DNA from: a virus
Virus record (IMG/VR): IMGVR_UViG_3300009034_002371
Span: 18,762 to 82,761 of that record
Strand: one strand, 5' to 3'
DNA length: 64,000 nucleotides
Shown: piece by piece, positions 2,386 through 49,658 of the stretch
Position numbering within the stretch: position 1 is the stretch's first letter
How the letters are laid out: every line of letters begins with the position of its first letter
Made by a program: the position numbers and the translations under genes
The notes under the pieces: model-generated
Database searches by the model: none
Told to the model about the DNA's origin: nothing
The model's input: only the letters and a program-made list of their open reading frames with translations

Positions 2386-3606
2386 GTGGCTATACGATTA
2401 GGATTGCATGCACCATTCATCTTTGGCCCTGTTGGTTTTGCACGTGTTGGTAGGATGATGGCTCTTGGGCTTAATAATCTTGGTGTGGAGGTGCGATTAA
2501 AAGGTGTAAAAAATCCAAGATACAACAGGGTCATAGCAAAGGAAGAATATGATCGTCTAAAAAGTTTTGCACAGGAGACATGGGAGCCAGATATTTGGGT
2601 TGCCCTGTCCCCCGGTTGTGGTTTTCTTAAAGATGTGAAGGGTTGGAACATAGGTATGTCTATGTGGGAAACACCAGAGCTTCCGGGGTTCGGGCGCCAT
2701 TGTAAACATGTTGATGAGGTTTGGGTTCCCTCTCCCTTTAATTGGAAGATATTTCACGGTTCTGAAAGTAGTAGTGTACCCAGAGAAAGTCTATCCTATA
2801 TGCCCCTTGGGGTAGACACCCGCCTTTATTCCCCACATACCCCATCGATCCGTATTACGGATGACTTTCAAACCAGCTTTGATTTCATCTATGGAATAGT
2901 TTGTGGTTATTCGGCGCGGAAGGGTGTGGACCTCATGTTAACTGCCCACCATGAGCTTTTTGACCATGAGGATAGTGTAGCACTCTTTGTGAAGGGTGAT
3001 CATTTTGGTCAGAGGCTGCTTCCAAAAGATATCCAATCCATGTACAACGGGAAGACTTTAGTAGATCTTTCTGATCAGCCTCCCAGAGTAAGAGAGGAGA
3101 TTGAGCAGAAGGTGTGTAAGCATAAGCCTACTATACTGTACAATTTTGCTAGTCTTAGCGATGCAGATCTTAGCGAAGTCTATAACTCATTAGATGCTTT
3201 TGTTTTCCCATCCCGTGGAGAAGGATTTGGACTACCCCCTCTGGAAGCAATGAGTTGTGAGCTCCCTGTAATTGGGACCGCAGCGACAGGAATGAAAGAG
3301 TTTATGCTTGATGAGTTTAGTTACCCTGTACGCTCAAGGGGTTGGAAGATATGTACTGGTTGCGATTGGATTACTCCTGACTACCGTGGGCAGTTATTTG
3401 TGGATCCAGATTATATACAGTACAGGGATGCGCTTTGGGAGGTTTATTCTGATCGTGAGGCCGCTAAAGTCAAAGGAAAAAAAGCGCGTGAGTTTGTGAT
3501 TGAGAATTACAGTTTTGAAGTTGCAACAGCTAGGATGAAGAGAAGGTTAGAAGAGATAGTGGGTGGTCATATGACGACAGAAAACTTCTGGCCGGAGGGG
3601 GTGTAG
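2386..3606 (+). CDS. GT4 (GT-B) glycosyltransferase
   Basis: VDEVWVPS, PLGVD, RKGVD, FVFPSRGEGFGLPPLEAMSCELPVI. Confidence 0.92.
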   Translation: MAIRLGLHAPFIFGPVGFARVGRMMALGLNNLGVEVRLKGVKNPRYNRVIAKEEYDRLKSFAQETWEPDIWVALSPGCGFLKDVKGWNIGMSMWETPELPGFGRHCKHVDEVWVPSPFNWKIFHGSESSSVPRESLSYMPLGVDTRLYSPHTPSIRITDDFQTSFDFIYGIVCGYSARKGVDLMLTAHHELFDHEDSVALFVKGDHFGQRLLPKDIQSMYNGKTLVDLSDQPPRVREEIEQKVCKHKPTILYNFASLSDADLSEVYNSLDAFVFPSRGEGFGLPPLEAMSCELPVIGTAATGMKEFMLDEFSYPVRSRGWKICTGCDWITPDYRGQLFVDPDYIQYRDALWEVYSDREAAKVKGKKAREFVIENYSFEVATARMKRRLEEIVGGHMTTENFWPEGV

Positions 3607-10168: not shown

Positions 10169-11154
10169 ATATGGCGGAGAGGGTCAATGGTTGCGTTCTA
10201 ATTACGGGTGCCGCTGGGCATATCGGCTCATCTATAGCTAGGGCACTGTTGGACGAGCCAGTAGATCAATTGGTACTTCTGGACAACTTTACTAAGGGGA
10301 GACGCGAGGATATTGTAGATGTTGTACGAGATCCTCGGGTACAATGTGTTTCGGGAGATATAAAGGATTCTGGGCTGCTCCATAGGCTCTTTGAAGATGT
10401 AGACTATGTTTTCCATCTGGCTGCTCTGTGGATTCGACAATGTCAGGATTTTCCCTGTGCAGGGTTTGAGGTGAATATCAGGGGTACCTTTAATGTACTT
10501 GAAGCTGCTGCTGCCCAAGGGGTTAGGAGACTGGTGTTTGCATCAAGTTCTTCAGTTTACGGGACACCCGTTGAAACTCCAATAACGGAGGAACATCCAT
10601 ACAACCACAGAACCTTCTACGGCGCGTCAAAGGTTGCGGGGGAGCATTTATGTCGTGCTTTTAACGAGAAATACGGCTTGGATTATGTAGGGCTACGCTA
10701 CATGAACGTTTATGGTCCAGGTCAAAGTTTTACCGGTACTTATACAGCCGTGATATCAAAAATGCTGCAACGTATCGAACAGGGACAGCCTCTCATAATA
10801 TACGGTACCGGACTCCAATCGCGAGACTTTACATATATAGATGATGCTGTAGATGCAAGTATCCTTGCACTGAAACATGGGGAATCGACCGCTATTTATA
10901 ACGTTTGTACGGGTTCGGAAGTAACTGTAAAGGAACTGGCTGACCTTCTTCTGGAACTTACAGGCTCAGACGTGGGTACTGTACATGAAACTGAGGCGGA
11001 AGCCTTTTTGATTCGAAAAGTAGGTAGTACTGAGAAGGCAGAAAGGGGTTTAGGGTTCAAAGCGCAGGTACCTTTAAGGGAGGGACTGCAGCGCTTACTC
11101 CAATGGAGATCTAAACAGCGAGTGGAGGTGCCACATGAAAGTTCCGATAACTAG
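10165..11154 (+). CDS. NAD-dependent nucleotide-sugar epimerase/dehydratase (extended SDR)
   Basis: TGAAGHIGS, VFHLAA, ASSSSVYG, YGASK, RYMNVYGP, RDFTYIDD. Confidence 0.92.
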   Translation: MNMAERVNGCVLITGAAGHIGSSIARALLDEPVDQLVLLDNFTKGRREDIVDVVRDPRVQCVSGDIKDSGLLHRLFEDVDYVFHLAALWIRQCQDFPCAGFEVNIRGTFNVLEAAAAQGVRRLVFASSSSVYGTPVETPITEEHPYNHRTFYGASKVAGEHLCRAFNEKYGLDYVGLRYMNVYGPGQSFTGTYTAVISKMLQRIEQGQPLIIYGTGLQSRDFTYIDDAVDASILALKHGESTAIYNVCTGSEVTVKELADLLLELTGSDVGTVHETEAEAFLIRKVGSTEKAERGLGFKAQVPLREGLQRLLQWRSKQRVEVPHESSDN

Positions 11155-13204: not shown

Positions 13205-13804
13205 GTGAGTGACTATTTCGTACACGAATCAGCATATGTTGAAGAGGGTGCTATCGTTGGTGAGGGAACAAAGGTATGGCATTTCAGTCATGTGATGAGT
13301 GGCGCCCAGATTGGTAATAACTGTTTACTTGGACAAAGTGTCTTTATCGATAAAAGGGCGAAGATAGGCAATAACGTAAAGATAATGAATAATGTTTCAG
13401 TTTATGATTTGGTAACAATTGAGGATAATGTATTCTGTGGGCCGTCGATGGTATTTACTAACGTCAAGAATCCTCGCGCGGAGATACAGAGGCGCCTGAG
13501 CGAGTACCTGCCTACTGTGGTAAAGCGCGGTGCTACTATAGGTGCTAATGCGACGGTTGTATGCGGAAATACTATCGGGCGGTATGCTTTCATAGGTGCA
13601 GGTTCTGTGGTGACTAAGGATATTCCTGATTATGCTGTGGCATATGGGAATCCGGCTCGTGTAGATGGATGGATGTGTGAATGTGGTGAGGAGCTAAATT
13701 TCACGCCCGAATATGCTATTGCTACATGTGTTAAATGTAACAAGAAGTATAAGAAACGTGTGCAGATTGTAGAACGCCATTGGGGTGATACGGAGAGGAG
13801 CTGA
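13205..13804 (+). CDS. wbpD: WbpD/WlbB-type nucleotide-sugar N-acetyltransferase
   Basis: YFVHESAYVEEGAIVGEGTKVWHFSHVMSGAQIG, FCGPSMVFTNVKNPR, GNPAR..GWMCECG plus a C-terminal CxxC. Confidence 0.85.
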   Translation: MSDYFVHESAYVEEGAIVGEGTKVWHFSHVMSGAQIGNNCLLGQSVFIDKRAKIGNNVKIMNNVSVYDLVTIEDNVFCGPSMVFTNVKNPRAEIQRRLSEYLPTVVKRGATIGANATVVCGNTIGRYAFIGAGSVVTKDIPDYAVAYGNPARVDGWMCECGEELNFTPEYAIATCVKCNKKYKKRVQIVERHWGDTERS

Positions 13805-17845: not shown

Positions 17846-17969
17846 TTTAGACTAGAGTGAATAGGGGAGATAACAATTCCGATGGATTGTTACTATGCTC
17901 ACGATATTGTCGAGCATTGTCATCGGTCAACTGCAGAAACACGGAGTTGTCTTCACTAAGTGACCAAAG

Positions 17970-17983
17970 TGTGTAATAATAAT
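17970..17983 (+). promoter_or_regulatory. TGTGTAATAATAAT intergenic motif, copy 2
   Basis: Identical to 1497-1510. Followed by the CGGAGAGGAG RBS and ATG 18004. Confidence 0.5.
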
Positions 17984-18003
17984 CGAGCGGAGAGGAGAGC
18001 ACA

Positions 18004-18408
18004 ATGATACAAATTAGGAAACATCCAGATGTTGAAGCAGCCCTGTATATATCGGGCTTGGATGTTAAATTACCTGCGGACCACTCGTGGGTAACTATAT
18101 CTAGTCGCTTCTCTGTCGATGAGATTGAAGGTTCGAAGAACCTTGAGGATGCCCTCAGGGTGAAATTCATTGAGATGCGAATTGACGGAGACTATAGCGA
18201 TGCTCCTAGTTGGTTTCTCGAATCGTACGCCGATGCTGTACGTGTCCCGGTTGAGGTTCTGGACGATAATGAGTTGACAGCTGTGCAAAAACTGGAGAGT
18301 CTTAAAGCGTCTGCTCATCCTATTATGTGGGCTATTATACGTTCAGAACTGTTTAATGTAGAGAGTGAAGGGCGAAATCGCCCTACCGTGCTTAATATGT
18401 TGCGATAG
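18004..18408 (+). CDS. Hypothetical phage protein
   Basis: Strong RBS. EGSKNLEDAL motif resembles ORFs 1552 and 1985. C-terminal ESEGRNRPTVL. Confidence 0.7.
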   Translation: MIQIRKHPDVEAALYISGLDVKLPADHSWVTISSRFSVDEIEGSKNLEDALRVKFIEMRIDGDYSDAPSWFLESYADAVRVPVEVLDDNELTAVQKLESLKASAHPIMWAIIRSELFNVESEGRNRPTVLNMLR

Positions 18409-20647: not shown

Positions 20648-20665
20648 TCGGAGAGGAGACCTATA

Positions 20666-21433
20666 ATGATTACAAGTTTCAAGGAAAAAAAGCTTGTGGA
20701 GTACCTTGAGCCGGGAGGTAAGTATTTAATCCGTTTTGGGCATGGATTCGGGGACACTATCATGTTTATGCCCATCTATGATAAGTTAGTGGGGATGTTT
20801 ACCGATTGTCAAATAGACCTCTATGTGGAATCTGGACAGGAAGAGATCTGGAAGTCTGTAGCAGATAAGGACGCTCCCGGGTATGATGTAGTGTTCTCGC
20901 TGGACTTCCCCATGGCCATAGGTAGCGACCTCACAAAGCCAGCTAAATGTTGCATAGACGAAGTGGGTATTGAACCAATTACAGCCCTTGCAGAGCTTCC
21001 GGAGAAGCCGAGTCCGTTAGTTGGTATACATTATCAGGGAACAGCCTTACCGGATTCTGTTGGTTGTCCCCAGGAGGTAGCCCAACAGATATGGAACGAG
21101 GTTCTGGAATTTGGCAAAGTTCCCATAGAGTGCCACTTCGAGCACATGTTTCATAACCCAGTTAATAAAATGTTCTGGTTTGTTAGTAGCCATGTTAGAA
21201 ACTGTACTGCAAACCTCCATAATTTGATTGGGTTGATACAGCATACGGGAGCGTTTATGGGTGTTGCCTCCGGTCCTTGGGTGGCAGCTTTATCTATTAT
21301 GCCAGAGAGAACGTTGTATTTGGAGAAACATCACAAGTTAGAAACATATACCAGTGAGGCTAGAGCCCGGGTAGATGTACTTGACTATCGCTCCGGGAGT
21401 GTAAAAGAGTGGTTAGAGAGCCTGACATGGTGA
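20666..21433 (+). CDS. GT9-like glycosyltransferase
   Basis: HGFGDTIMF, LIGLIQ..AFMGVASGP. Confidence 0.65.
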   Translation: MITSFKEKKLVEYLEPGGKYLIRFGHGFGDTIMFMPIYDKLVGMFTDCQIDLYVESGQEEIWKSVADKDAPGYDVVFSLDFPMAIGSDLTKPAKCCIDEVGIEPITALAELPEKPSPLVGIHYQGTALPDSVGCPQEVAQQIWNEVLEFGKVPIECHFEHMFHNPVNKMFWFVSSHVRNCTANLHNLIGLIQHTGAFMGVASGPWVAALSIMPERTLYLEKHHKLETYTSEARARVDVLDYRSGSVKEWLESLTW

Positions 21434-21478
21434 TGGGTGTTTGGGGAGAACGCCATAAAAACGGAGAGGAGAACAATA

Positions 21479-22435
21479 ATGGCTAGAAAATATGCCATGA
21501 TAGTGACAGATTCCGGGTACCTAGGCGGGGTCAACGGGATGCTTAACGGGTTGTGGTACTATAATAACGATGTAGATTTCCACTATATCTATAAGGAAAG
21601 TAGACGTGGGGAACTCACTGCGTTCATGGAGGACGTAAAAAAGGACCCGTGGTATTCCGATCGAATCTATATGACGAAGTATGAGGAGTTAATAAATGAG
21701 GGTTACCCTGAAGGCTCAGGTCGCCCTCCATGGCGTCTCAAGTTCTACCGCTATCTATATGGTATTAGAAGATGTCAAGACTATGACGCCGCAGTCATAT
21801 TTGATGCGGATATGATAATAGTTAATAACTTCATGCGGTACTTTGATATTGCTGCCGAGACGGGAAGAATTTTAGTTCCTAATAACGATTACTCGGGAGA
21901 GGAGTTTGATTGTTATCGTGGAGGCTATAAAGGCGCTTCTTCCCCACCTCTCTATTGTATGCCGCTTTTCTTCGTTCCCAGTAACCCGGATATAATCAAA
22001 GCTTTCGAAAGGATTCCGGAGTTGGCTATAGAGCGAGATACAAGTGACATGGTTGCTTTTAATCACTCGATGATAGAGTCTAAGCTGATAGAGGAGCTTC
22101 TCCTACTGCCCGCTGTTTTGTGGTTACAAGTGCATTACTACTTTGTAATGCTGGCAAGGAGAAATATAGGTGGTAAACAGTATCTAGCACTACATAGGGG
22201 TGGTGATAGATTGTTCTCTTTTCATCGGCGGTGGTGGTTTGAATCCGACTGTAGGAAGAAAATAGTGATGCCCAAAACGGCTATAGGGGCTGCGTTTGCA
22301 TATAACAACGTGCGTCTGTTTTGGGAGTTTACTAGGTTCTTCAATCTACAGTGTCGCCACAATGTCGAGTGGCAGGAGAGGTGGGGCGACTTTCCTAAAG
22401 AGATACCAAAACCGAAGTTGCCAGGGAAGTATTAG
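21479..22435 (+). CDS. GT-A (GT8-like) glycosyltransferase
   Basis: CGGAGAGGAG RBS precedes ATG 21479. DSGYLGG..MLN, KFYRY, IFDADM (DxD), SDMVAFN. Confidence 0.65.
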   Translation: MARKYAMIVTDSGYLGGVNGMLNGLWYYNNDVDFHYIYKESRRGELTAFMEDVKKDPWYSDRIYMTKYEELINEGYPEGSGRPPWRLKFYRYLYGIRRCQDYDAAVIFDADMIIVNNFMRYFDIAAETGRILVPNNDYSGEEFDCYRGGYKGASSPPLYCMPLFFVPSNPDIIKAFERIPELAIERDTSDMVAFNHSMIESKLIEELLLLPAVLWLQVHYYFVMLARRNIGGKQYLALHRGGDRLFSFHRRWWFESDCRKKIVMPKTAIGAAFAYNNVRLFWEFTRFFNLQCRHNVEWQERWGDFPKEIPKPKLPGKY

Positions 22436-41266: not shown

Positions 41267-42124
41267 ATGGCAAGCTCAAGTTCTAAAGTACCCCGTGATA
41301 CAGGTACATTTGAGTATCGTTATCGAGATAGCGCTCTGCCACCTGTAATTCATGATGATGAAAAGTATAATCTACCATCACAGGATTTCATCGATGAACT
41401 AAACGACCCTTCATTTTTCCAGGGAGATTTTTATGAGGATGTAAGTCTAAGTTCTAGCTCATCGAGCTCTTGTTCTCCAAGTCCAAGTTCATCAAGCTCA
41501 AGTAGTATAAGTCTTTCGTGTTCTAGCTCTTCAAGTTATAGTTCACAGTCGGTAAGTAGTTCATCTTCAAGTTGTAGTAGTCTTGAAGCCCCAGACGTAA
41601 CTGACGCCAGAGTAGACCCACCACGTTTTCGTTCCGGTGAAATTATATGTGCTAGGTATACCTATCATGGTGCTTTTCCTGAAGCCGGTTCTCAGATCCG
41701 TTGGTATAAGAACGATGTATATCAGCCGGATCATGATAATGAGATATGTTTCGAAGTAACTGGTCAACGGGGAGATGTTTGGTTCTTCTATGTTACACCA
41801 TGTGATGCGTTTGTATGTGGGAACCCTGTGGAGTCTCTCCCTGGGATTATGATAAATAACCCTCCGTCTGCACCCTCCCGTATAGAGATTGTTCCTCATA
41901 ATCCACAGGTGGATGATGACTTATTTGCAATTGTAGAGGGATCTGTCGATCTCGATGGTGACAGGATTATATATCATATAACATGGTACAGACTCAGGGA
42001 CGGGGTTACTGAGGAGTTAGTAGCGTATCGTAATAAGACTACGGTACCGTATACTGAGGTACAGGAGGGAGATGTATTCTCCATTGAGGCTAGGGCATTT
42101 GACGGAAGTGATGAGTCCGGGTAG
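41267..42124 (+). CDS. Ser-linker protein with two Ig-like domains (second truncated at C-terminus)
   Basis: YTY....EAGSQIRWYKN...GDVW...VTP.D and NPPSAP...DLDGD.I.Y..TWYR...GDVF.IEARAFDG. Homologous to the Ig domain in ORF 45836. Confidence 0.65.
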   Translation: MASSSSKVPRDTGTFEYRYRDSALPPVIHDDEKYNLPSQDFIDELNDPSFFQGDFYEDVSLSSSSSSSCSPSPSSSSSSSISLSCSSSSSYSSQSVSSSSSSCSSLEAPDVTDARVDPPRFRSGEIICARYTYHGAFPEAGSQIRWYKNDVYQPDHDNEICFEVTGQRGDVWFFYVTPCDAFVCGNPVESLPGIMINNPPSAPSRIEIVPHNPQVDDDLFAIVEGSVDLDGDRIIYHITWYRLRDGVTEELVAYRNKTTVPYTEVQEGDVFSIEARAFDGSDESG

Positions 42125-42187
42125 TGAATTCATAGCCCCATGCCTTTCCGTTGGTTATAGGGGATTAGGGGGTTTAGCCGTATATTA

Positions 42188-42301
42188 GTAGGCGAGGCTC
42201 TCTACTAGACTTTGGCATAGTGGTGGGCTACACGAAGGTGCTCCTCTCCGTGCCCATACTATGACAGAGCTCCTCTCGACTAGTTGGGGAGCCTCTCCTA
42301 T
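42188..42301 (+). ncRNA. Long irregular stem-loop (candidate structured RNA or leader)
   Basis: Nested arms TAGG/CCTA, GAGGCTCTC/GGGAGCCTC, ACTAG/CTAGT, CTTTG/CAGAG, CATAGT/ACTATG, GTGGGC/GCCCAT in non-coding DNA. Confidence 0.55.
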
Positions 42302-42320
42302 ACCTCGCGGGGTGATAAAG

Positions 42321-43259
42321 ATGCCTGTATGGGTTACAGATAACTTTTTTAGGACTATGAGATACTTTAATCGGTTCATAGGTCTACAGGCTCATGAGCC
42401 TGTGTACCTACTGTTTAGGAAGTGGTCTGGTCCCGTAATCTCTGGCACAGCGTCTGGCTTTCGTCTTAACCCTGTTTACCAAAGATATGAATTTACCCTG
42501 TATACACCACCTACGCCTATAGTAGGCACCGGGAAGCCCTTCTTGCTATCTTTAAAGTTATTCCTAGATGGCGCCGAAATGAATCCTGTATATCAGTACG
42601 ACCTAACAACATCAAATCTTGACTTTTGGATGGAGATAGATAAGGGAGGGCCCAAAGATCCAGATAGCTATGGTGGTTATATTGTAGGCTTTCATGATGG
42701 TTTTGACCCTGCTGGACATATAATAGAGTACCGCTACGAAGAAGTTTGTCACTGCGTAGATGTTGGAGAGGAGAGTTTTCATCCTGACTCTAGATGTTCG
42801 ACCTGTTACGGTACAGGATTTGTGGGTGGCTATGATCAATATACGTCATTCCAAGAAAGAGAAGCTGGGCGGATTGTTAAGCCAGCTAATACTATCCTTT
42901 GTAGGTTCCCTATTACTTCTGAAATACTAAAGATAAGCAGATACGGTGGTGAAATAGTTACTCAGAGAAAGAGCTGGGCCATCGTTAGCCCACTTTTGCA
43001 TGACTGGGATATACTTATAAGAATGAGAGCTTACGGTGCTCCTATGCAGCTAAATCCTACTACACTCACGGTGCCAGATGAACGATACTGGATCATAGAG
43101 TGGGAACACTCATCTGCAAGGCCTTCATACGACCTGCCCCTGAGGGCGCAGCCCGGGATGCATGCTGTGCGAAAGGGAGTTACTCTTCACCAAAAATTTA
43201 ACACAGCGGAGATACAGCCACAACATATAGCGTATCAGATTCCGTTCCTGAGAGGGTAA
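42321..43259 (+). CDS. Putative neck/head-closure protein
   Basis: GGGGTGA SD precedes ATG 42321. CHC...PDSRCSTCYGTGFVGGY Cys motif resembles those of large-myovirus neck proteins. Position is upstream of the sheath. Confidence 0.55.
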   Translation: MPVWVTDNFFRTMRYFNRFIGLQAHEPVYLLFRKWSGPVISGTASGFRLNPVYQRYEFTLYTPPTPIVGTGKPFLLSLKLFLDGAEMNPVYQYDLTTSNLDFWMEIDKGGPKDPDSYGGYIVGFHDGFDPAGHIIEYRYEEVCHCVDVGEESFHPDSRCSTCYGTGFVGGYDQYTSFQEREAGRIVKPANTILCRFPITSEILKISRYGGEIVTQRKSWAIVSPLLHDWDILIRMRAYGAPMQLNPTTLTVPDERYWIIEWEHSSARPSYDLPLRAQPGMHAVRKGVTLHQKFNTAEIQPQHIAYQIPFLRG

Positions 43260-43263
43260 TAGC

Positions 43264-43761
43264 ATGGTTATATCTGTTGCCTCACTAGTTGGTAGGGTTC
43301 TCGTTCAACGGGGCATGAATCAGCTAATAGCCCAGGTGACAGCACAAGCTGTTGAAGAAGTGATTGAATCTTTTAGGGAAGAAAGTGCAGAACTCGCCAG
43401 CCAGCGAATCGGAGTTATTGATATAGAATCCGATACATGGTACGCTTTTCATATGGCCAATCGACAGAGTTGGGAAGCTGGGCTTCGTAAGTGGGCTGAT
43501 GTGCTTAAAAGAGAAATCCCACGACGTTACGTTGGACAGGGTGCAGGACCCGGGAGCAGATCAATGTTCAGGACAGATATAAATGCTACTGGGGAGGGTT
43601 TGGATATACGTCTTGTTCGTCTACCTGGATCTCCTCGCGGGATTAGTAGAGCTGCTGCCCAAGGGGTTATACGAAAAGCTGTTCAGGATACTATAAAGGC
43701 TTATATAAGGTGTGTTGCTACCGGTGGTGCAGGTTTCCCGGAGGATTATGAGGGTGCTTGA
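43264..43761 (+). CDS. Hypothetical protein (neck/tail completion region)
   Basis: Fills the gap in the operon between neck-like genes; no motif recognised. Confidence 0.55.
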   Translation: MVISVASLVGRVLVQRGMNQLIAQVTAQAVEEVIESFREESAELASQRIGVIDIESDTWYAFHMANRQSWEAGLRKWADVLKREIPRRYVGQGAGPGSRSMFRTDINATGEGLDIRLVRLPGSPRGISRAAAQGVIRKAVQDTIKAYIRCVATGGAGFPEDYEGA

Positions 43762-43763
43762 TA

Positions 43764-44555
43764 ATGGCATTTTACAGGTTTACTCGCTCTTGTAGACAAG
43801 TTCTAATCAATTATTTGCAGAGTCAGTTGAGCAGATCAGAGAAGCACTGGGACGGATCTGAGTGGGTTGAGCTGCCAGAGATTCGTGTTGTAGATGCTCA
43901 TGAATATCAACCGAGGCTGCTTCCGGCTGTTGTTACAGATACGGTCATGGGTAATATACGAACTCTATCTTTTAACCATGTTATTCACGTGTGGACAGAT
44001 GATTACGGCCTCTACGGGCCCCGTAATGCCACGTATCAGGTATTTGGTGGTAGGGGTGACTTTGATGTGACATTTTTCTGTGGCGCTAATGATAGAGAGC
44101 TCCAACAAAAGTTAGTTGATGTAACGACGATGTATTTGACGATTGGTCGTGGATACCTTTGGCTTTACCGGTTTGTATTGGTGGGTGATGTGAGAATACA
44201 AGGTGATGGTGTCGAGGGTGAGGTACAACAAGAGAGGGTGTGGTATGGTAACTTGCTCACGCCTGTATCTGCTGACTGGCGACTAATCGTGCCCCGAGAT
44301 CAGGTCGAGCGTTTTGATATTGATATTGATTTGGTAACACCGGACGATCCATTTGAGAGTCCAGATGGACTTGCACCTGGAGTACTTACTCCCATGGATC
44401 CAGAGGGTGCAAGAGCCAGACTCGTAGAAATGCAGAGGCAGGAGTCAGCGCAAGCACCTGCTAGTTCATTGAGAGACCTCATGATAGAAGGTTCCGATGC
44501 CGAGGATTTGCCCCTTCGACCTATGAGAAGTTATAAGAAGGTCCAGAAGGAATAG
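43764..44555 (+). CDS. Putative tail terminator/tail completion protein
   Basis: Position in the operon and an alpha/beta pattern RLLPAVV...FDVTFFC.AND..LQQKLVD typical of tail terminators. Confidence 0.45.
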   Translation: MAFYRFTRSCRQVLINYLQSQLSRSEKHWDGSEWVELPEIRVVDAHEYQPRLLPAVVTDTVMGNIRTLSFNHVIHVWTDDYGLYGPRNATYQVFGGRGDFDVTFFCGANDRELQQKLVDVTTMYLTIGRGYLWLYRFVLVGDVRIQGDGVEGEVQQERVWYGNLLTPVSADWRLIVPRDQVERFDIDIDLVTPDDPFESPDGLAPGVLTPMDPEGARARLVEMQRQESAQAPASSLRDLMIEGSDAEDLPLRPMRSYKKVQKE

Positions 44556-44588
44556 CTTTGTGGTGGAGTTTCGAGGAGGTTATATATA

Positions 44589-45836
44589 ATGGCACTTAAC
44601 GCAGCGATTGTGTGGGAGGTAAGAACCTCCGGCAATAATAATAATGGTGGAGGCTTCAAAGCGGGGGCATCTGGGACTGATCGCTCGCAACAGGACGCTG
44701 CCCATTTATCTTTTACCGATCTAGAAGTTAAGGGCGCGGTCTATACCAGAGTATACTCTGTCACAGAGAATGCAAACTTAGTTGCTACTTGTATTGGAAA
44801 CTTAATCCATATAACTGGCGACGGTGGCTCCGGGCTTTTTACAGTCGGGTTTTATGAGGTCACTGGGCAAGGTAACGATGGTAATAACTATCTCGATATA
44901 GATAGGAACTGCGCTACTGGTAATGCTAGTGACGGAATTGCCGCCCTCGGGGGCGCTGTTGCGGACTTATTGGAGATAGATAGTGTTGTAGTCGCGGGTA
45001 ATACCATGTATGTTAAAGCTGGAACGTACGCTCACGCTAGTGCGTTAAGTGTAAACAATGGTACTGCTAGTCTATATATTAAAACAATAGGCTATAATAC
45101 TGCTAGGGGTGACGCCCCCACAGGTGATAACAGGCCACTGATACAGGACGGCGGTAACGAACAGAAATGGGGAACGTATAACGAGATTGAGAATTTCAGA
45201 CGTACAGGTTCTCACACCTACGGTATCTATACTTTGAACTACTGCGTTATTCGCAATTGCAAGAGTACGGTAGCAGCTAACACACGCTGCTTCAGGTATG
45301 GTGCTGGAAGTGTTGTGATCGATTGTGAAGCTATTGGACCTGGTACCCTAGGGATAGGTTTTGAATCGTCCGGAGGTGGTTCATTTACAATAGCTTGTTA
45401 TGCCGAGGGTTTGAACCGAGGCTATGAACATGTAATAGGTAATGAGGTAGTCGCCTTCTGCACTTTCGATACTTGTACATATGGGTGGTACGGTAATAAC
45501 GTTAATGGTCGCCCAGGTTGTAAAATTCTCAATAATAATTTTTATAACAGCTCGAATACTGGTGTGTATGGTAATTATGGAGGGCAGACAGCGTATTCCT
45601 GGCTCGTTCTGAATAACCAATTTGTGGACTGCGGTGTTGGCATGCAAATAACTATTTCTTCGCCAGGGGTATATCTTGATTTTAATAACTTCTTTAATAA
45701 TACCACAGATGTAACTAACGTTATCAAGGGTGCAAATACAACAGCGAACAATCCCGGATATACAAATGCCCCTGCTGGCGATTTCAGTGGTGTTGACAGT
45801 GCAGACGGCTTTGGTATTAGACTTGGAGTTGGATAA
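44589..45836 (+). CDS. Beta-helix virion protein (paralog of ORF 25669), lacking the terminal DQGAxQ motif
   Basis: MALNAAIVWEVRTSGNNNNGGG, GYNTARGDAPTGDNRP, beta-helix repeats. Ends GFGIRLGVG with a TAATG overlap into the next gene. Confidence 0.68.
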   Translation: MALNAAIVWEVRTSGNNNNGGGFKAGASGTDRSQQDAAHLSFTDLEVKGAVYTRVYSVTENANLVATCIGNLIHITGDGGSGLFTVGFYEVTGQGNDGNNYLDIDRNCATGNASDGIAALGGAVADLLEIDSVVVAGNTMYVKAGTYAHASALSVNNGTASLYIKTIGYNTARGDAPTGDNRPLIQDGGNEQKWGTYNEIENFRRTGSHTYGIYTLNYCVIRNCKSTVAANTRCFRYGAGSVVIDCEAIGPGTLGIGFESSGGGSFTIACYAEGLNRGYEHVIGNEVVAFCTFDTCTYGWYGNNVNGRPGCKILNNNFYNSSNTGVYGNYGGQTAYSWLVLNNQFVDCGVGMQITISSPGVYLDFNNFFNNTTDVTNVIKGANTTANNPGYTNAPAGDFSGVDSADGFGIRLGVG

Positions 45837-47935
45837 TGGCTCAAGCAACAATATACCAAGGGGCCTGGCAGCAAAGTACCTATCAAGGGGCCTGGCAAGA
45901 GCAAGCGCCTGTTTCCAGTTCGTCTTCATCCTTGAGCAACTCATCGAGTAGCTGTTCATCAAGCTTCAGCTCATCGAGTTCATGTTCAAGTAGCTTCAGT
46001 AGCTGTTCCTCGAGTTCAAGCTTCTCGAGTAGCAGTTTCAGTTCATCGAGTAGCAGTTTCAGCTCATCAAGTTCATGTTCAAGTAGCTTCAGTAGCTGCA
46101 GTTCATCGTTTTCGAGTTCATGTAGCAGCTCATCGAGCTTCAGCTCATCGAGTTCATGTTCAAGTAGCTTCAGTAGCTGCAGTTCATCGTTCTCGAGTTC
46201 ATGTTCAAGTAGCTTCTCAAGTAGCTGTTCGTCAAGCTTTGCTTCCAGCTCATGCAGTAGCAGTTTTAGTTCCGGTTCGCTTTCATCCTCATCTTCGAGC
46301 AGTTTGGCTGTTCCGCGTCCACCAGAGGCTCGGAACGTGATTATTCGACCTCTAAGTCCACGGCCTCATCATGATCTAGAGCTGACCTATGATTACTATG
46401 ATCCTGACGGTGACCCCGAGCAGGGATCTTTAATCCAGTGGTATAGGAATGGTGGGCGTCAATCGGGCTATGATAACTTGTCAACACTTCCCTACACGGC
46501 TACCAGTGCAGGTGAAATCTGGTACGCTATGGTTCGACCGAGAGATAATCAGGGGTTGTGGGGAAACTGGGCTATTTCTAACATTGTGCGGATATCGTCT
46601 GTCATTACAGACTGGTATTATGGTCCGGGTGCATATCCAAGCAGACAATTCGAGCGCCGGCCGGTAGTTCCTAGCTTTTCAAGTTCATCACGTTCAGTAA
46701 GTTCAGTAAGTGCAAGTTCTTCGAGTAGTTCTAGTTTATCAGGTATAAGCAGTTCGAGTAGTAGATCATCCGAGTCGCTTTCTGAATCATACTACTTTAT
46801 GGATACTGCATTCAAGTCTACAAGCTCCTATGTGTTTGCTACTGTTATAAGTTACGCCACCGGCAATCCTAGGGGAGTTGTGTCTATAGATGTGGACGAT
46901 CCATCGAACCCGAGCATTGTTGGCTGGTTGCCAATTGATCCTACTGTTTATGGTAGCGTTAAACATTGTCAGATTACAAATTCTGGCCACCTTGCAGTGA
47001 GCCTTAGTGAATGGAGTGGTGTTTCTGGAGGTGTAATCTTAGTTGATATATCTAACCCTGCCTCCATGTCGTTGATGGGGAAATATAGTCTTGGAAATCC
47101 AGCCACATATGTTACCAGTGTGAACTACTTCGATGTGGCTACCATCACGGGGCCTGAGGAACGTATTTATCTTGCAACAGCTGATAGTGCGCTGGGATTA
47201 GTTGCCGTAGATATAGATAATCCTAATAGTTTAACCAAGGCCGGTGACTATGTGCCAGGGACGGAGATTTTTGATGTTGCTGTTACTAATAACAATGTTG
47301 TTGTTATAACTAATAACAGAGTTCGGTTCTTGTCTAGAAACGATTCTCTTACACTTCAGAGCGAGCCCGATCTAACGACAGCCCCTGGAACTTCCGGGAG
47401 CTGTCCTACCTGCAACTACGACCCAAGCAAAGCTACGGGCTTTAACGATACTGATTTCAAGTTACTTACTCTTGCCGCAGACGCAGCAGCAAACGTTGTC
47501 TATTTTGTAGTACGTAAACTCGATGCAACAGCAAGCCACTTATGGGTGGTCAACTCCGGTGGAGTGGAAAGTCTTGCCCCAATTAGTTTTGGAACTACAT
47601 CAGATCTTCAAATGGTTATTTACTTCAACACCGGAGTATATGTATGTGCTTCGGTTAGTGCTCGTATATTGTACTCCCACGATTCAAATAATACTATTGA
47701 TTTTTGCGACACCCCTTGGTATATGGGAATGAACTGTGGACCACCAACACCGTCCATTTACCTAGATTACCCTGTGTCTAAAGATACTAAAAGTCATGAT
47801 ATTATAGGAATAGATGGGGGTATAGTGTCTGCAACACCTTATATATTCTGTGCTTGTATGGATGAGGGGTTGAGGATTTATGACGTAACTGACATAAGTA
47901 ATCTTTCATTGGAGTATGTAAACTTTGGTCAATAG
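45836..47935 (+). CDS. Modular protein: tandem QGAWQ motif + Ser tract + Ig-like domain + Ser tract + LVIVD-repeat beta-propeller
   Basis: YDYYDPDGDPEQGSLIQWYRNG marks the Ig domain. GVVSIDVDDPSNP, GVILVDISNPAS, GLVAVDIDNPNS and GLRIYDVTD are LVIVD repeats. Confidence 0.72.
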   Translation: MAQATIYQGAWQQSTYQGAWQEQAPVSSSSSSLSNSSSSCSSSFSSSSSCSSSFSSCSSSSSFSSSSFSSSSSSFSSSSSCSSSFSSCSSSFSSSCSSSSSFSSSSSCSSSFSSCSSSFSSSCSSSFSSSCSSSFASSSCSSSFSSGSLSSSSSSSLAVPRPPEARNVIIRPLSPRPHHDLELTYDYYDPDGDPEQGSLIQWYRNGGRQSGYDNLSTLPYTATSAGEIWYAMVRPRDNQGLWGNWAISNIVRISSVITDWYYGPGAYPSRQFERRPVVPSFSSSSRSVSSVSASSSSSSSLSGISSSSSRSSESLSESYYFMDTAFKSTSSYVFATVISYATGNPRGVVSIDVDDPSNPSIVGWLPIDPTVYGSVKHCQITNSGHLAVSLSEWSGVSGGVILVDISNPASMSLMGKYSLGNPATYVTSVNYFDVATITGPEERIYLATADSALGLVAVDIDNPNSLTKAGDYVPGTEIFDVAVTNNNVVVITNNRVRFLSRNDSLTLQSEPDLTTAPGTSGSCPTCNYDPSKATGFNDTDFKLLTLAADAAANVVYFVVRKLDATASHLWVVNSGGVESLAPISFGTTSDLQMVIYFNTGVYVCASVSARILYSHDSNNTIDFCDTPWYMGMNCGPPTPSIYLDYPVSKDTKSHDIIGIDGGIVSATPYIFCACMDEGLRIYDVTDISNLSLEYVNFGQ
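45914..46303 (+). repeat. Second long poly-Ser(Cys/Phe) coding repeat
   Basis: About 130 codons. 46133-46194 matches 39523-39584 at 61 of 62 nt. Confidence 0.92.
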
Positions 47936-48045
47936 AGTATCCGGAGAGGAGTTAGGTTTTTATCATTAGGTGATAGGAGGAGAGGAGCGGCCGAGGAAGT
48001 TCTAGTTCCCCGGTGTATCATTACTTATTTAAGGAGGTTGTCAGA

Positions 48046-49512
48046 ATGGCTTACCGTCCACCTGGAGTATATGTCGAGAAGATAGTCAATCCTGGCTTAG
48101 TTGCTATGTTTCAGGGAGCTCGCGTACCTGTTATAGTAGGAGCTGGTCAGCGGACTATAGAGGAGGTAGAGAGTCTTGTACATGGATCTGCGGGGGGTAC
48201 TGATCAGCTTACGTACGCTGCAACATCGATAATAAGATCTGGTGACTATCCGGATCAGATAAAGTATCGGGAAGGTACCGACTTCCTCTTCAGCGGCACG
48301 TTAGCTAACCCCTCACAGAACCTAGTTTGGAGTCCCTCTGGATCAGGTACGCGAGAACCTGATGTAGGAGCAACTTACTGGGTGACGTATAGACGTCCGG
48401 TAGATGATGATCAGTACGATTATCATATGTATACTAACGAGAATGACATCATTCAGCGCCATGGACCCGAGTCCAGTTTTAACCTTGCGACTGTGGGGGC
48501 CATTGTTGCTCTGAGACAGGGTTGTCAACAAGTTGGCATTATCCAGTTGAACCTAGTGGCAGCTACTGAGCAAAGTTACCCACATGGGGATCCTGATGAT
48601 CCAACACCCGCTGAGTGGTATACGGCGTTTATAGACGTCCTACCAATTCTCGAGCAGCTTGATACAGAGCAGTGTAGATACATTGTACCCATGACCACGT
48701 TGGGTGACGAGGCAGGGGAAGAAGATTACGATATCTTCAATGATTACCTGTTCCATGTCGACGAGATGAGCTTGACTTCTCAGCGTAGATGGAGAATGAT
48801 AGTCAGGGGGAAGGCGGCGACCCCGAGTGCATCCAATAGCACCGTTCGGGATGCGTTTAAAACGCAAGCTGAAGGGTACCGCTTCCATAATTCCGCTCGC
48901 AGGATGATAGTAGCCAGCCCGGGCGAGATTTACAGGATAATTCGGGACCCCGATACGGGGATCGCTACTAGAACGCTGTTTGATGGTAGTGTACTTGCAG
49001 CCGCGACTGCCGGTAGAATTTGTTCCTGGAACAATCCTGCAGTTCCTATCACCATGAAGGATTTTGCCGCGATCCAGTTCACCAGGATCTTCAGTAACGC
49101 TGACATGAACTATATGGCAGCTAACGGTGTTTGCGTATACTGGTACAAGGGTGAGAGTCTTAAATGCCGTCATGGTATAACATGCGACCTCACTAATGCT
49201 AATACGCAGGAGATCTCTGTCGTGGAGATAGAGGATTGGATCAAAGTGCAAGCTATCTTTGTACTGGAAAACAGGTATATCGGATCGATTATTGTAGGAG
49301 GGTTAACCGAGTCGATCCGAGCTACCCTAGTTGCACACTGGGAAGGACTGGTAAGAGCACAGAATATTGCAGACTTCGATCAGGGCTCTATTACAGTGAC
49401 CCAGAATGAAACTGATCCTCGTATCATTGATGTATACGGCAGGATAAAACCAGCGTACCCACTAAACTGGATTGATATTCGATTCATGTTCTACGCTGGT
49501 CCTGCCACATAA
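48046..49512 (+). CDS. Tail sheath protein
   Basis: AAGGAGG SD. N-terminal YRPPGVYVE. C-terminal GITCD...QEISVV.I.D...YIG...PAYPLNWIDI. Confidence 0.9.
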   Translation: MAYRPPGVYVEKIVNPGLVAMFQGARVPVIVGAGQRTIEEVESLVHGSAGGTDQLTYAATSIIRSGDYPDQIKYREGTDFLFSGTLANPSQNLVWSPSGSGTREPDVGATYWVTYRRPVDDDQYDYHMYTNENDIIQRHGPESSFNLATVGAIVALRQGCQQVGIIQLNLVAATEQSYPHGDPDDPTPAEWYTAFIDVLPILEQLDTEQCRYIVPMTTLGDEAGEEDYDIFNDYLFHVDEMSLTSQRRWRMIVRGKAATPSASNSTVRDAFKTQAEGYRFHNSARRMIVASPGEIYRIIRDPDTGIATRTLFDGSVLAAATAGRICSWNNPAVPITMKDFAAIQFTRIFSNADMNYMAANGVCVYWYKGESLKCRHGITCDLTNANTQEISVVEIEDWIKVQAIFVLENRYIGSIIVGGLTESIRATLVAHWEGLVRAQNIADFDQGSITVTQNETDPRIIDVYGRIKPAYPLNWIDIRFMFYAGPAT

Positions 49513-49529: not shown

Positions 49530-49558
49530 TTGCGTCAAGAGGTACATTATTGTGTAAT
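49530..49558 (+). promoter_or_regulatory. sigma70-like promoter TTGCGT-N17-TGTAAT upstream of tail tube gene
   Basis: Consensus spacing in the intergenic gap. Confidence 0.45.
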
Positions 49559-49658
49559 CTTCGATTGAAGGTGGGCGTTAACTCGCCTGGACTCTAGGGT
49601 GGTGCCGCGAGAGGGTAACCACCTTAGGTCCTTGGTGTATGCTCATATATTGAAGATT
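49556..49658 (+). ncRNA. Multi-branched structured leader between sheath and tube genes
   Basis: AATCTTCGAT/ATTGAAGATT encloses GGGCG/CGCCT and a ~14-bp stem at 49589-49631. Confidence 0.4.

Follow-up and report, generated by a model that had tools for sequence, protein, structure and literature searches.

A conserved interrupted hairpin with pyrimidine tracts complementary to ribosome sites ahead of the tail genes of a giant phage

Introduction

What is the role of a long, stable hairpin that lies between two structural genes of a giant phage and carries tracts mirroring the ribosome sites of genes kilobases away? This question is raised by a 114-nucleotide (nt) element in a 64,000-nt stretch of viral DNA (hereafter, the window), which comprises bases 18762-82761 of the 82,761-nt IMG/VR virus record IMGVR_UViG_3300009034_002371; negative positions refer to the part of the record that lies 5' of the window. 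Because the record, with a completeness estimate of 27%, holds only a minor part of its genome, it represents a fragment of a giant tailed phage. A first-pass annotation of the window described the element as an interrupted stem of about 35 base pairs (bp) or more in non-coding DNA that displays two tracts complementary to a recurrent Shine-Dalgarno (SD) motif, and read it as a small RNA or processed leader that coordinates glycosylation genes with tail assembly. To our knowledge, almost no regulatory RNAs are known from lytic or giant phages, and none at all from uncultured ones.

Structure of the hairpin

The element lies on the + strand at 42188-42301, inside a 196-nt non-coding gap (42125-42320, + strand) between two structural genes. 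Its predicted fold is an interrupted hairpin in which a lower stem (42188-42208 with 42280-42301) is followed by middle and upper stems (42210-42228 with 42252-42269) and by a weakly paired apex (42229-42251) that contains GCUCCUCUCCGU; a second copy of GCUCCUCUC lies in a one-sided 3' bulge of 10 nt. The fold contains 37 main pairs, arranged in stems of 5, 15, 5, 7 and 5, which bears out the stem length given in the first-pass annotation. At -52.7 kcal/mol, the hairpin was more stable than every one of 200 shuffled sequences (-37.0 ± 3.6 kcal/mol; z-score -4.37). When the whole record was folded in about 5,500 overlapping 120-nt segments with a step of 15, the hairpin segment had the lowest minimum free energy (MFE) and, after correction for GC content, the second lowest residual (-4.17 standard deviations, against -4.18 for the lowest).

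The predicted lower stem comprises 20 bp with one mismatch and one bulged U, followed by the 10-nt one-sided loop and by 17 bp above it. By this prediction, about two helical turns of double-stranded RNA are present in an intercistronic hairpin with an internal loop, which is the anatomy of a ribonuclease III (RNase III) signal. An intrinsic terminator was not called at 42188-42320, the stem being followed by ACCTCGCGGGGTGAT and not by a run of T. Searches against Rfam 15 returned no match at the gathering score over the whole window and none at expectation values (E) up to 10 for 42050-42400, and ARAGORN detected no transfer RNA or transfer-messenger RNA. The hairpin represents a new predicted RNA structure without a known family, and it is conserved, as described below.

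The longest open reading frame (ORF) of the gene to the right of the gap begins at an in-frame ATG at 42261, that is, upstream of the gap's end. We found 25 homologues of the 312-amino-acid (aa) product of this gene (58-81% identity), 14 of which are 312 aa long and all of which fall within 233-319 aa, and the aligned homologues begin at the Met of 42321 (consensus MPIW) and not at the ATG of 42261. These lengths and the shared start indicate that the gap upstream is non-coding, as the first-pass annotation had assumed.

Three tracts of C and U (CU tracts) on the + strand were distinguished in the hairpin. CU tract 1 (GCTCCTCTCCGT, 42240-42251) lies in the weakly paired apex, CU tract 2 (GCTCCTCTC, 42269-42277) in the one-sided 3' bulge where the first-pass annotation had noted it, and CU tract 3 (GCCTCTCC, 42291-42298), which is also conserved in the relative L003, is buried in the 3' arm of the lower stem. 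Both the apex and the bulge carry GCTCCTCTC(CGT). The string CTCCTCTC occurs three times on the + strand of the whole record, and two of these copies are inside the hairpin. The calculated cost of opening was 5.5 kcal/mol for tract 1 (mean unpaired probability 0.52) and 2.8-4.0 kcal/mol for tract 2, compared with 11-19 kcal/mol for tract 3 and 9-19 kcal/mol for the stem arms. Pyrimidine tracts are thus predicted to be exposed in the loop and bulge of a stable structure, the exposure of tract 2 depending on the context in which it is folded.

Purine sites complementary to the CU tracts

The counterpart of the exposed tracts is the purine motif GGAGAGGAG, which has nine matches in the window (eight on the + strand and one on the - strand) against 0.66 expected, a number that none of 100 shuffled sequences reached; the complementarity noticed in the first pass is therefore beyond chance. 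With 10 copies on the + strand, GGAGAGGAG is the commonest all-purine 9-mer of the record. Four of these copies (13792, 17989, 20650 and 21463) lie 6-7 nt before an ATG, three (-2821, 47943 and 47979) are in leaders with no start codon behind them, and three (-17385, 21896 and 42765) are inside coding sequence. The leader copy at -2821 precedes a gene for 164 aa, which is closely followed by the major head protein gene.

The four copies before an ATG constitute the ribosome sites of four genes of a glycosylation block, all on the + strand. The longest complementarity is that of the SD sequence ACGGAGAGGAGC (13790-13801) of a DegT/DnrJ/EryC1 aminotransferase gene (ATG 13807), which is the exact 12-nt complement of CU tract 1. 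The SD CGGAGAGGAG matches over 10 nt in front of both gene 18004-18408 (17988-17997) and gene 20666-21433 (20649-20658), and the SD ACGGAGAGGAG of gene 21479-22435 (21461-21471) matches over 11 nt. The correspondences of 10-11 nt reported in the first pass at 17988, 20649 and 21461 were all recovered, each 6-7 nt before the ATG. Most other genes have ordinary GGAGG-type sites. GAGAGG occurs in more intergenic gaps than any other hexamer (7 of 21).

The two copies at 47943 and 47979 form a twin site (47942-47988, + strand) in the 110-nt leader of the tail sheath gene (48046-49512), a leader that is unstructured (z-score +0.6). They are not the SD of the sheath gene itself, in agreement with the first-pass annotation: the real SD is AAGGAGG before the ATG at 48046. 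This ATG is the most likely sheath start, since AAGGAGG stands 8 nt upstream and the homologue in the related genome G001 aligns from residue 3; the longest frame would begin at a GTG at 48013.

Two other kinds of short element were observed. The block (A)AGTGTGTAATAATAAT or AAATGTGTAATAATAAT, which resembles an extended -10 promoter, occurs in two gaps (1494-1510 and 17966-17983) and also at 49551; in the gap at 17846, about 5 nt separate it from the CGGAGAGGAG site of gene 18004 that follows. Short hairpins that join an SD-like arm to a CU-rich complement (GTGGAGGAG...GCTCCTCCAC; TTAAGGAGG...CCTCCTTAA) were seen at 2340-2366 and at about -960 to -930, either shortly before a gene start or behind the head gene. 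They differ from the hairpin at 42.2 kb in that their pyrimidine tract is paired in cis.

Predicted pairing of the tracts with start regions

For each candidate target, we calculated a net energy as the sum of the duplex energy, the cost of opening the tract within the gap and the cost of opening the target within ±70 nt. RNAcofold runs in which the hairpin was combined with the sheath leader and with 65 start regions were discarded, because this program cannot represent pairing of a loop with another strand unless the hairpin is opened. Among 64 start regions, that of gene 21479 gave the best net energy (-14.3 kcal/mol), and those of genes 13807 and 18004 reached -13.8 and -13.6 kcal/mol. The start region of gene 20666 reached only -7.4 kcal/mol because its target is less open; the best of the other 60 was -7.1 kcal/mol, and the median of all 64 was -0.6 kcal/mol. 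In the sheath leader, CU tract 1 with 47943 gave -12.7 kcal/mol and CU tract 2 with 47979 gave -13.5 kcal/mol. The leader site at -2821 gave -10.4 kcal/mol, and the three coding copies of GGAGAGGAG ranged from -0.2 to -9.4 kcal/mol.

The computed complementarity extends beyond the generic SD core and reaches 10-12 nt at specific targets, as would be expected of an anti-SD base-pairing RNA. That only three of the 64 start regions lie at or below -13.6 kcal/mol against a median of -0.6 kcal/mol indicates that the tracts are not generic anti-SD sequences and instead fit the special motif. We also considered an inverted duplication of a leader as the origin of the hairpin and rejected it: reverse-complement local alignments end at 10-16 nt, with scores that were reached by 0-23 of 300 shuffles.

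Relatives of the hairpin

The upstream DNA was compared for L002 (part of G001), L003, L004, L005 and L007/L009 (one lineage). L003, whose protein is 79% identical, has a homologous gap, and the covariance model R1, built from the window sequence alone, matches it at L003:70-182 with an E of 8.5e-8. Where the lower stem and the three CU tracts of L003 are not identical to those of the window, the changes keep the pairs; the middle and upper stems differ in sequence with their pairing retained (z-score -4.9). Tract 1 again occupies the apex and tract 2 an 11-nt 3' bulge. The 10-nt core of tract 1, GCTCCTCTCC (GTGCTCCTCTCC with the two preceding bases), is identical in both, the last two bases being GT here and TA in L003; tract 2 is identical and is unpaired in L003 in every context folded. 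Stems that are rewritten with pairing kept around unpaired tracts that stay fixed are the signature of an RNA. On a MAFFT alignment, RNAalifold did not recover the upper stems because the alignment misplaces the rewritten arms.

At the same place, L005 (60% identity) has an unrelated 114-nt hairpin (z-score -6.3) that begins a 370-nt gap (z-score -5.8). Its internal loop is asymmetric on the 3' side, and its 17-nt apical loop carries CCUCUCCG, which contains CCUCUCC. The seven pyrimidine tracts of the three hairpins, in the window, L003 and L005, all share CCUCUC, the complement of GAGAGG. In L002 and L007/L009 the two genes abut with no gap, and L004 offers only 63 nt of upstream sequence, which differs. 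A long hairpin with the loop core is therefore present in two of the four lineages having enough upstream sequence, and nothing comparable is present in the other two. In L005, a 103-aa ORF with an N-terminal Cys/His pattern and a weak PHROG match (L005:193-504) and a 250-nt AT-rich stretch (within L005:505-874) lie between the poly-Ser gene and the 312-aa gene. The junction before the 312-aa gene is an insertion hot spot.

All three hairpins fold better as the + strand than as the - strand (-52.7 vs -45.5 kcal/mol in the window, -47.2 vs -44.8 in L003 and -46.4 vs -27.8 in L005; gains of 7.2, 2.4 and 18.6), which speaks for a coding-strand RNA and against a DNA palindrome. Further sediment samples supplied two DNA contigs that cover the hairpin at about 93% identity. 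One is X2 record 13 (42131-42649), which shows 33 differences together with 5 insertions, and the other is X4 record 27 (from 42225); in the DNA runs X1 and X3, no contig spans 42171-42304. Three IMG/VR pattern scans (26, 1 and 4 stretches) gave no further similarity to the gap; their hits were judged to be chance, and the single match lies antisense inside a coding gene. A pattern scan of a genome collection returned at least 120 stretches, and none of the 124 loci obtained together with the four from the third IMG/VR scan had BLAST similarity at E up to 1. A protein-based scan of the same collection found no relative. The hairpin is not a repeated or mobile element by copy number, as it occurs once in the 82.7-kb record and not at all in G001. 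Taken together, the evidence from these folds and comparisons favours a functional RNA structure whose unpaired tracts would be under sequence selection.

Comparison with genome G001

G001 (159 kb, 90% complete) served as a contrast. It contains no match to R1, and GGAGAGGAG is not enriched in it (3 forward and 0 reverse copies, against 3 and 1 for a control pattern). No comparable purine 9-mer and no aminotransferase homologue were found in G001, and its sheath leader is 18 nt long and has no motif. After the G001 sheath gene stands a textbook terminator consisting of a 12-bp stem and a U run (L040, about 2980-3020). In the window, the place directly after the sheath gene is occupied by a second long interrupted hairpin (49555-49657; z-score -3.9) with no U tail.

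G001 also carries a repeated intergenic cassette, found at 10393, 63748, 92880, 109466 and 157556 and as an inverted pair at 115480-115640; this inverted pair is the most stable 120-nt segment of G001. The cassette is made up of the palindrome TATGTAATTACATA, some 15-20 nt, a hairpin with the loop TATAGGGGG(G)AAT/TTT and a T-run. Blocks of it recur at 42156-42188 of the window and at L003 33-68, and in G001 the first shared block sits in the loop of hairpins that precede a T-run. The cassette is possibly a terminator-plus-promoter unit of this phage group.

Genomic context

The gene to the left of the gap (41267-42124) encodes 285 aa and that to the right (42321-43259), which opens the tail block, encodes 312 aa; neither product was assigned to a family in PHROGs or Pfam. 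Both genes are on the + strand, as are all long genes listed for the window. A minus-strand gene behind the motif was considered and rejected: only a GTG-TAG or a 9-codon frame follows the motif on that strand, which holds no long gene. The SD (GGGGTGAT) and ATG of the 312-aa gene occupy 42309-42323 (+ strand), with the hairpin ending 8 nt before this SD, and a GGTGAT-type SD is also found upstream in L002, L003 and L005.

The 5' part of the gap (42125-42187, + strand) is conserved in L003 and contains the G tracts TATAGGGGA (42156-42164) and TTAGGGGG (from 42165) and the block CCGTATATTAG (42178-42188). Blocks TATAGGGG and TTTAGCCGTAT(A/T)TTA are common to these first 63 nt, to L003 and to the G001 cassette. 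This part may be a control region, either a promoter or a terminator remnant ahead of the hairpin, and we conjecture that a transcript starting in it would make the hairpin the 5' structure of the tail-block message. No sigma-70 promoter or terminator consensus was called in the gap.

Between the 312-aa gene and the sheath gene, four genes are present in the window (43264-47935, 4.7 kb), compared with two in G001 (L040 236-1470, 1.3 kb); the extra genes include one for a 699-aa LVIVD-repeat protein. Just upstream of the window lies the major head protein gene (L049:2883-3881, phrog_2522). Directly after it stands a 177-aa gene (L049:3957-4490, corresponding to record 17856-18389) that matches a sigma factor family (phrog_1740, E 8e-22). 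This sigma-factor-like gene implies that the phage has transcription control of its own, and the phage probably directs its own late transcription.

Discussion

What, then, could the hairpin do? We tentatively favour, at somewhat less than an even chance, the reading that it is an operon-embedded anti-ribosome-site RNA that would pair with the purine sites. Base pairing of the tracts with GGAGAGGAG is the simplest mechanism that accounts for every observation. The element would be a structured RNA within the + strand message, either as a leader or in the intercistronic gap before the 312-aa gene, and its long rigid hairpin would hold out two copies of GCUCCUCUC, one in the apex and one in the 3' bulge. 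These tracts would pair with GGAGAGGAG sites and lower ribosome loading there, the predicted targets being the twin sites of the sheath leader and the start regions of three or four glycosylation-block genes. The RNA might be active while part of the long message or once excised at the long stem, which could also serve as a processing site that releases or stabilises it. That the RNA is made, that it pairs and in which direction it acts are points that we infer. In general terms, the first-pass proposal of an anti-SD small RNA or leader gains from the structure, the predicted exposure of the tracts, their conservation in L003, the analogue in L005 and the selective pairing energies; its weak side is that an RNase III signal or a protein-binding element fits the anatomy about equally well. 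The further proposal that glycosylation is coordinated with tail assembly has one contrast as its basis, namely G001, which lacks the hairpin, the motif enrichment and the aminotransferase.

Several points weigh against pairing with the purine sites. The joint presence here of hairpin, motif and glycosylation block, and their joint absence from G001, amount to a single comparison. The structural evidence consists of two homologous sequences and one analogue, too few for a covariation statistic, and the contigs available for L003 (1.5 kb) and L005 (4.2 kb) contain no GGAGAGG on the + strand. Several G-rich coding segments score as high in a cruder scan, which used a 19-nt probe and left out opening costs. 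The mean unpaired probability of CU tract 2 is 0.75-0.79 when the gap is folded alone and falls to 0.21-0.33 with coding flanks, because the tract can then pair with 42286-42292. The alternative fold, in which the upstream G tract also pairs with the 5' arm, wins as soon as the folded segment is extended into the upstream coding sequence or by the first 20 nt of the downstream gene. The first-pass picture of two displayed tracts accordingly holds for tract 1, which stays about half unpaired, but tract 2 is mostly paired when coding flanks are present. In addition, one would not readily expect the tail message to carry an element that damps the sheath gene, and GGAGAGGAG may be no more than a strong extended SD or a ribosome standby site, with no need of an antagonist.

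A competing explanation, doubtful to our minds yet realistic, is that the hairpin serves RNase III-type processing or stabilisation between cistrons, with the CU tracts being incidental or needed for local folding. A cut at the asymmetric internal loop would separate the fibre and glycosylation genes from the tail block and leave protective hairpin ends. The co-directional neighbouring genes, the missing T-run and the lack of a called terminator suit this explanation, as do the near-continuous lower stem of about 20 bp, the one-sided internal loop and the 17-bp upper stem; the second U-tail-less hairpin after the sheath gene (49555-49657, z-score -3.9) and the L005 hairpin, equal in size and in 3'-side asymmetry, point the same way. 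It leaves unexplained, however, why the tracts are conserved base for base amid changing stems, why they mirror the commonest purine 9-mer of the record and why the unrelated L005 hairpin has the same loop core, and two related lineages have no gap at all at the junction. Processing is compatible with pairing and does not exclude it. The shared motif could instead be read by a protein: four copies of GC(U)C(C)UCUC, in the 5' arm (42196), apex (42240), bulge (42269) and 3' arm (42291), all conserved in L003, would then form a platform for a phage or host protein. This could be ribosomal protein S1, enhancing translation of the gene that starts 19 nt downstream, or else an antitermination factor or a phage protein that regulates its own synthesis. 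RNAs that titrate proteins typically display arrays of short motifs in loops, the hairpin ends 8 nt from the downstream SD, and the phage encodes a sigma-factor-like protein. We nevertheless consider such a platform plausible but rather unlikely, given that the lower stem buries two of the four copies, that no RNA-binding candidate emerged, the neighbouring genes having no informative Pfam or PHROG matches, and that the enrichment of the purine motif at start regions is left unexplained.

At the level of DNA, the locus could hold transcription-factor sites that work in either orientation, a cruciform or the remnant of a small mobile insertion. GGAGAGGAG or its complement is found in three larger gaps (-2822, 42125 and the sheath leader), the lower stem is palindromic so that R1 weakly matches the - strand as well, the first 63 nt of the gap resemble the repeated cassette of G001, and the junction varies among relatives from no gap to a hairpin, a hairpin with the 103-aa ORF or other sequence. 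Set against this are the single copy in the record and none in G001, the failure of the three IMG/VR pattern scans and the genome-collection scan to bring up relatives, the G-U pairs that favour the + strand fold by 2.4 to 18.6 kcal/mol, the change of stems with pairing kept and unpaired tracts fixed, and the position of four purine copies at canonical SD distance from an ATG. We regard an explanation at this level as quite improbable. Whatever probability remains after the pairing, processing, protein and DNA explanations falls to the hairpin having no function.

The favoured anti-ribosome-site RNA can be set beside known systems. Citron and Schuster are said to have found in 1990 that the antisense RNA c4 acts via two unpaired segments on two downstream sites that cover a ribosome site. 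PMC8198154 places c4 of phages P1 and P7 in one operon (immI, c4-icd-ant) with the genes it represses. The likeness is that of a same-strand, same-operon phage RNA, here with two tracts that face two sheath-leader sites 5.7 kb downstream. In contrast to c4, the element described here is a single 114-nt hairpin with no Rfam match, its predicted targets are kilobases away and also lie upstream in the glycosylation block, and its setting is the structural operon of a lytic-looking giant phage rather than an immunity region. In Firmicutes, RNAIII and RsaE are named together with SprX/RsaOR as RNAs that mask ribosome sites with a C-rich loop. PMC4005690 describes how such a loop of SprX, which is carried by converting phages, blocks the spoVG ribosome site. 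The hairpin resembles these RNAs in having a pyrimidine-rich loop on a stable hairpin facing an SD, the pairing being predicted here. SprX-type RNAs are discrete transcripts with their own promoter and terminator, whereas the hairpin has no terminator and a conjectural promoter; the tract here is a CU mixture that fits a phage-specific extended motif and not the generic SD, and no relation in sequence or in Rfam was found. The hairpin belongs to neither the c4 nor the SprX family by sequence or structure. With RNase III signals of phage T7 it shares an internal-loop hairpin between co-directional genes, cleavage here being conjectural. We know of no T7 RNase III signal with conserved exposed tracts complementary to ribosome sites. 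According to PMC3867540, RNase III is steered by internal loops to cut a single strand, which creates stabilising 3' ends, and the T7 polycistronic precursor has five such signals.

A more far-reaching form of the pairing idea, which we regard as rather doubtful, is a private translation code, in which GGAGAGGAG would mark a regulon of sugar-modification genes together with decoy or standby sites in the sheath and head-gene leaders, countered by one operon-embedded hairpin with several complements. If this were true, the regulon would be translated at a rate set by synthesis of the tail message, which would provide RNA-level timing between virion glycosylation and tail assembly, and related phages would solve the same task with unrelated hairpins that have the same loop core.

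If the simpler pairing reading is true, the hairpin would be a compact case of a phage that controls the translation of its own late genes through a motif and anti-motif pair, and the founder of a new structured RNA family. Should it prove to be a processing hairpin and nothing more, it would still show where two expression units meet in a giant phage with a glycosylated virion. In either case, the three examples from the window, L003 and L005 provide a starting alignment for a family model.

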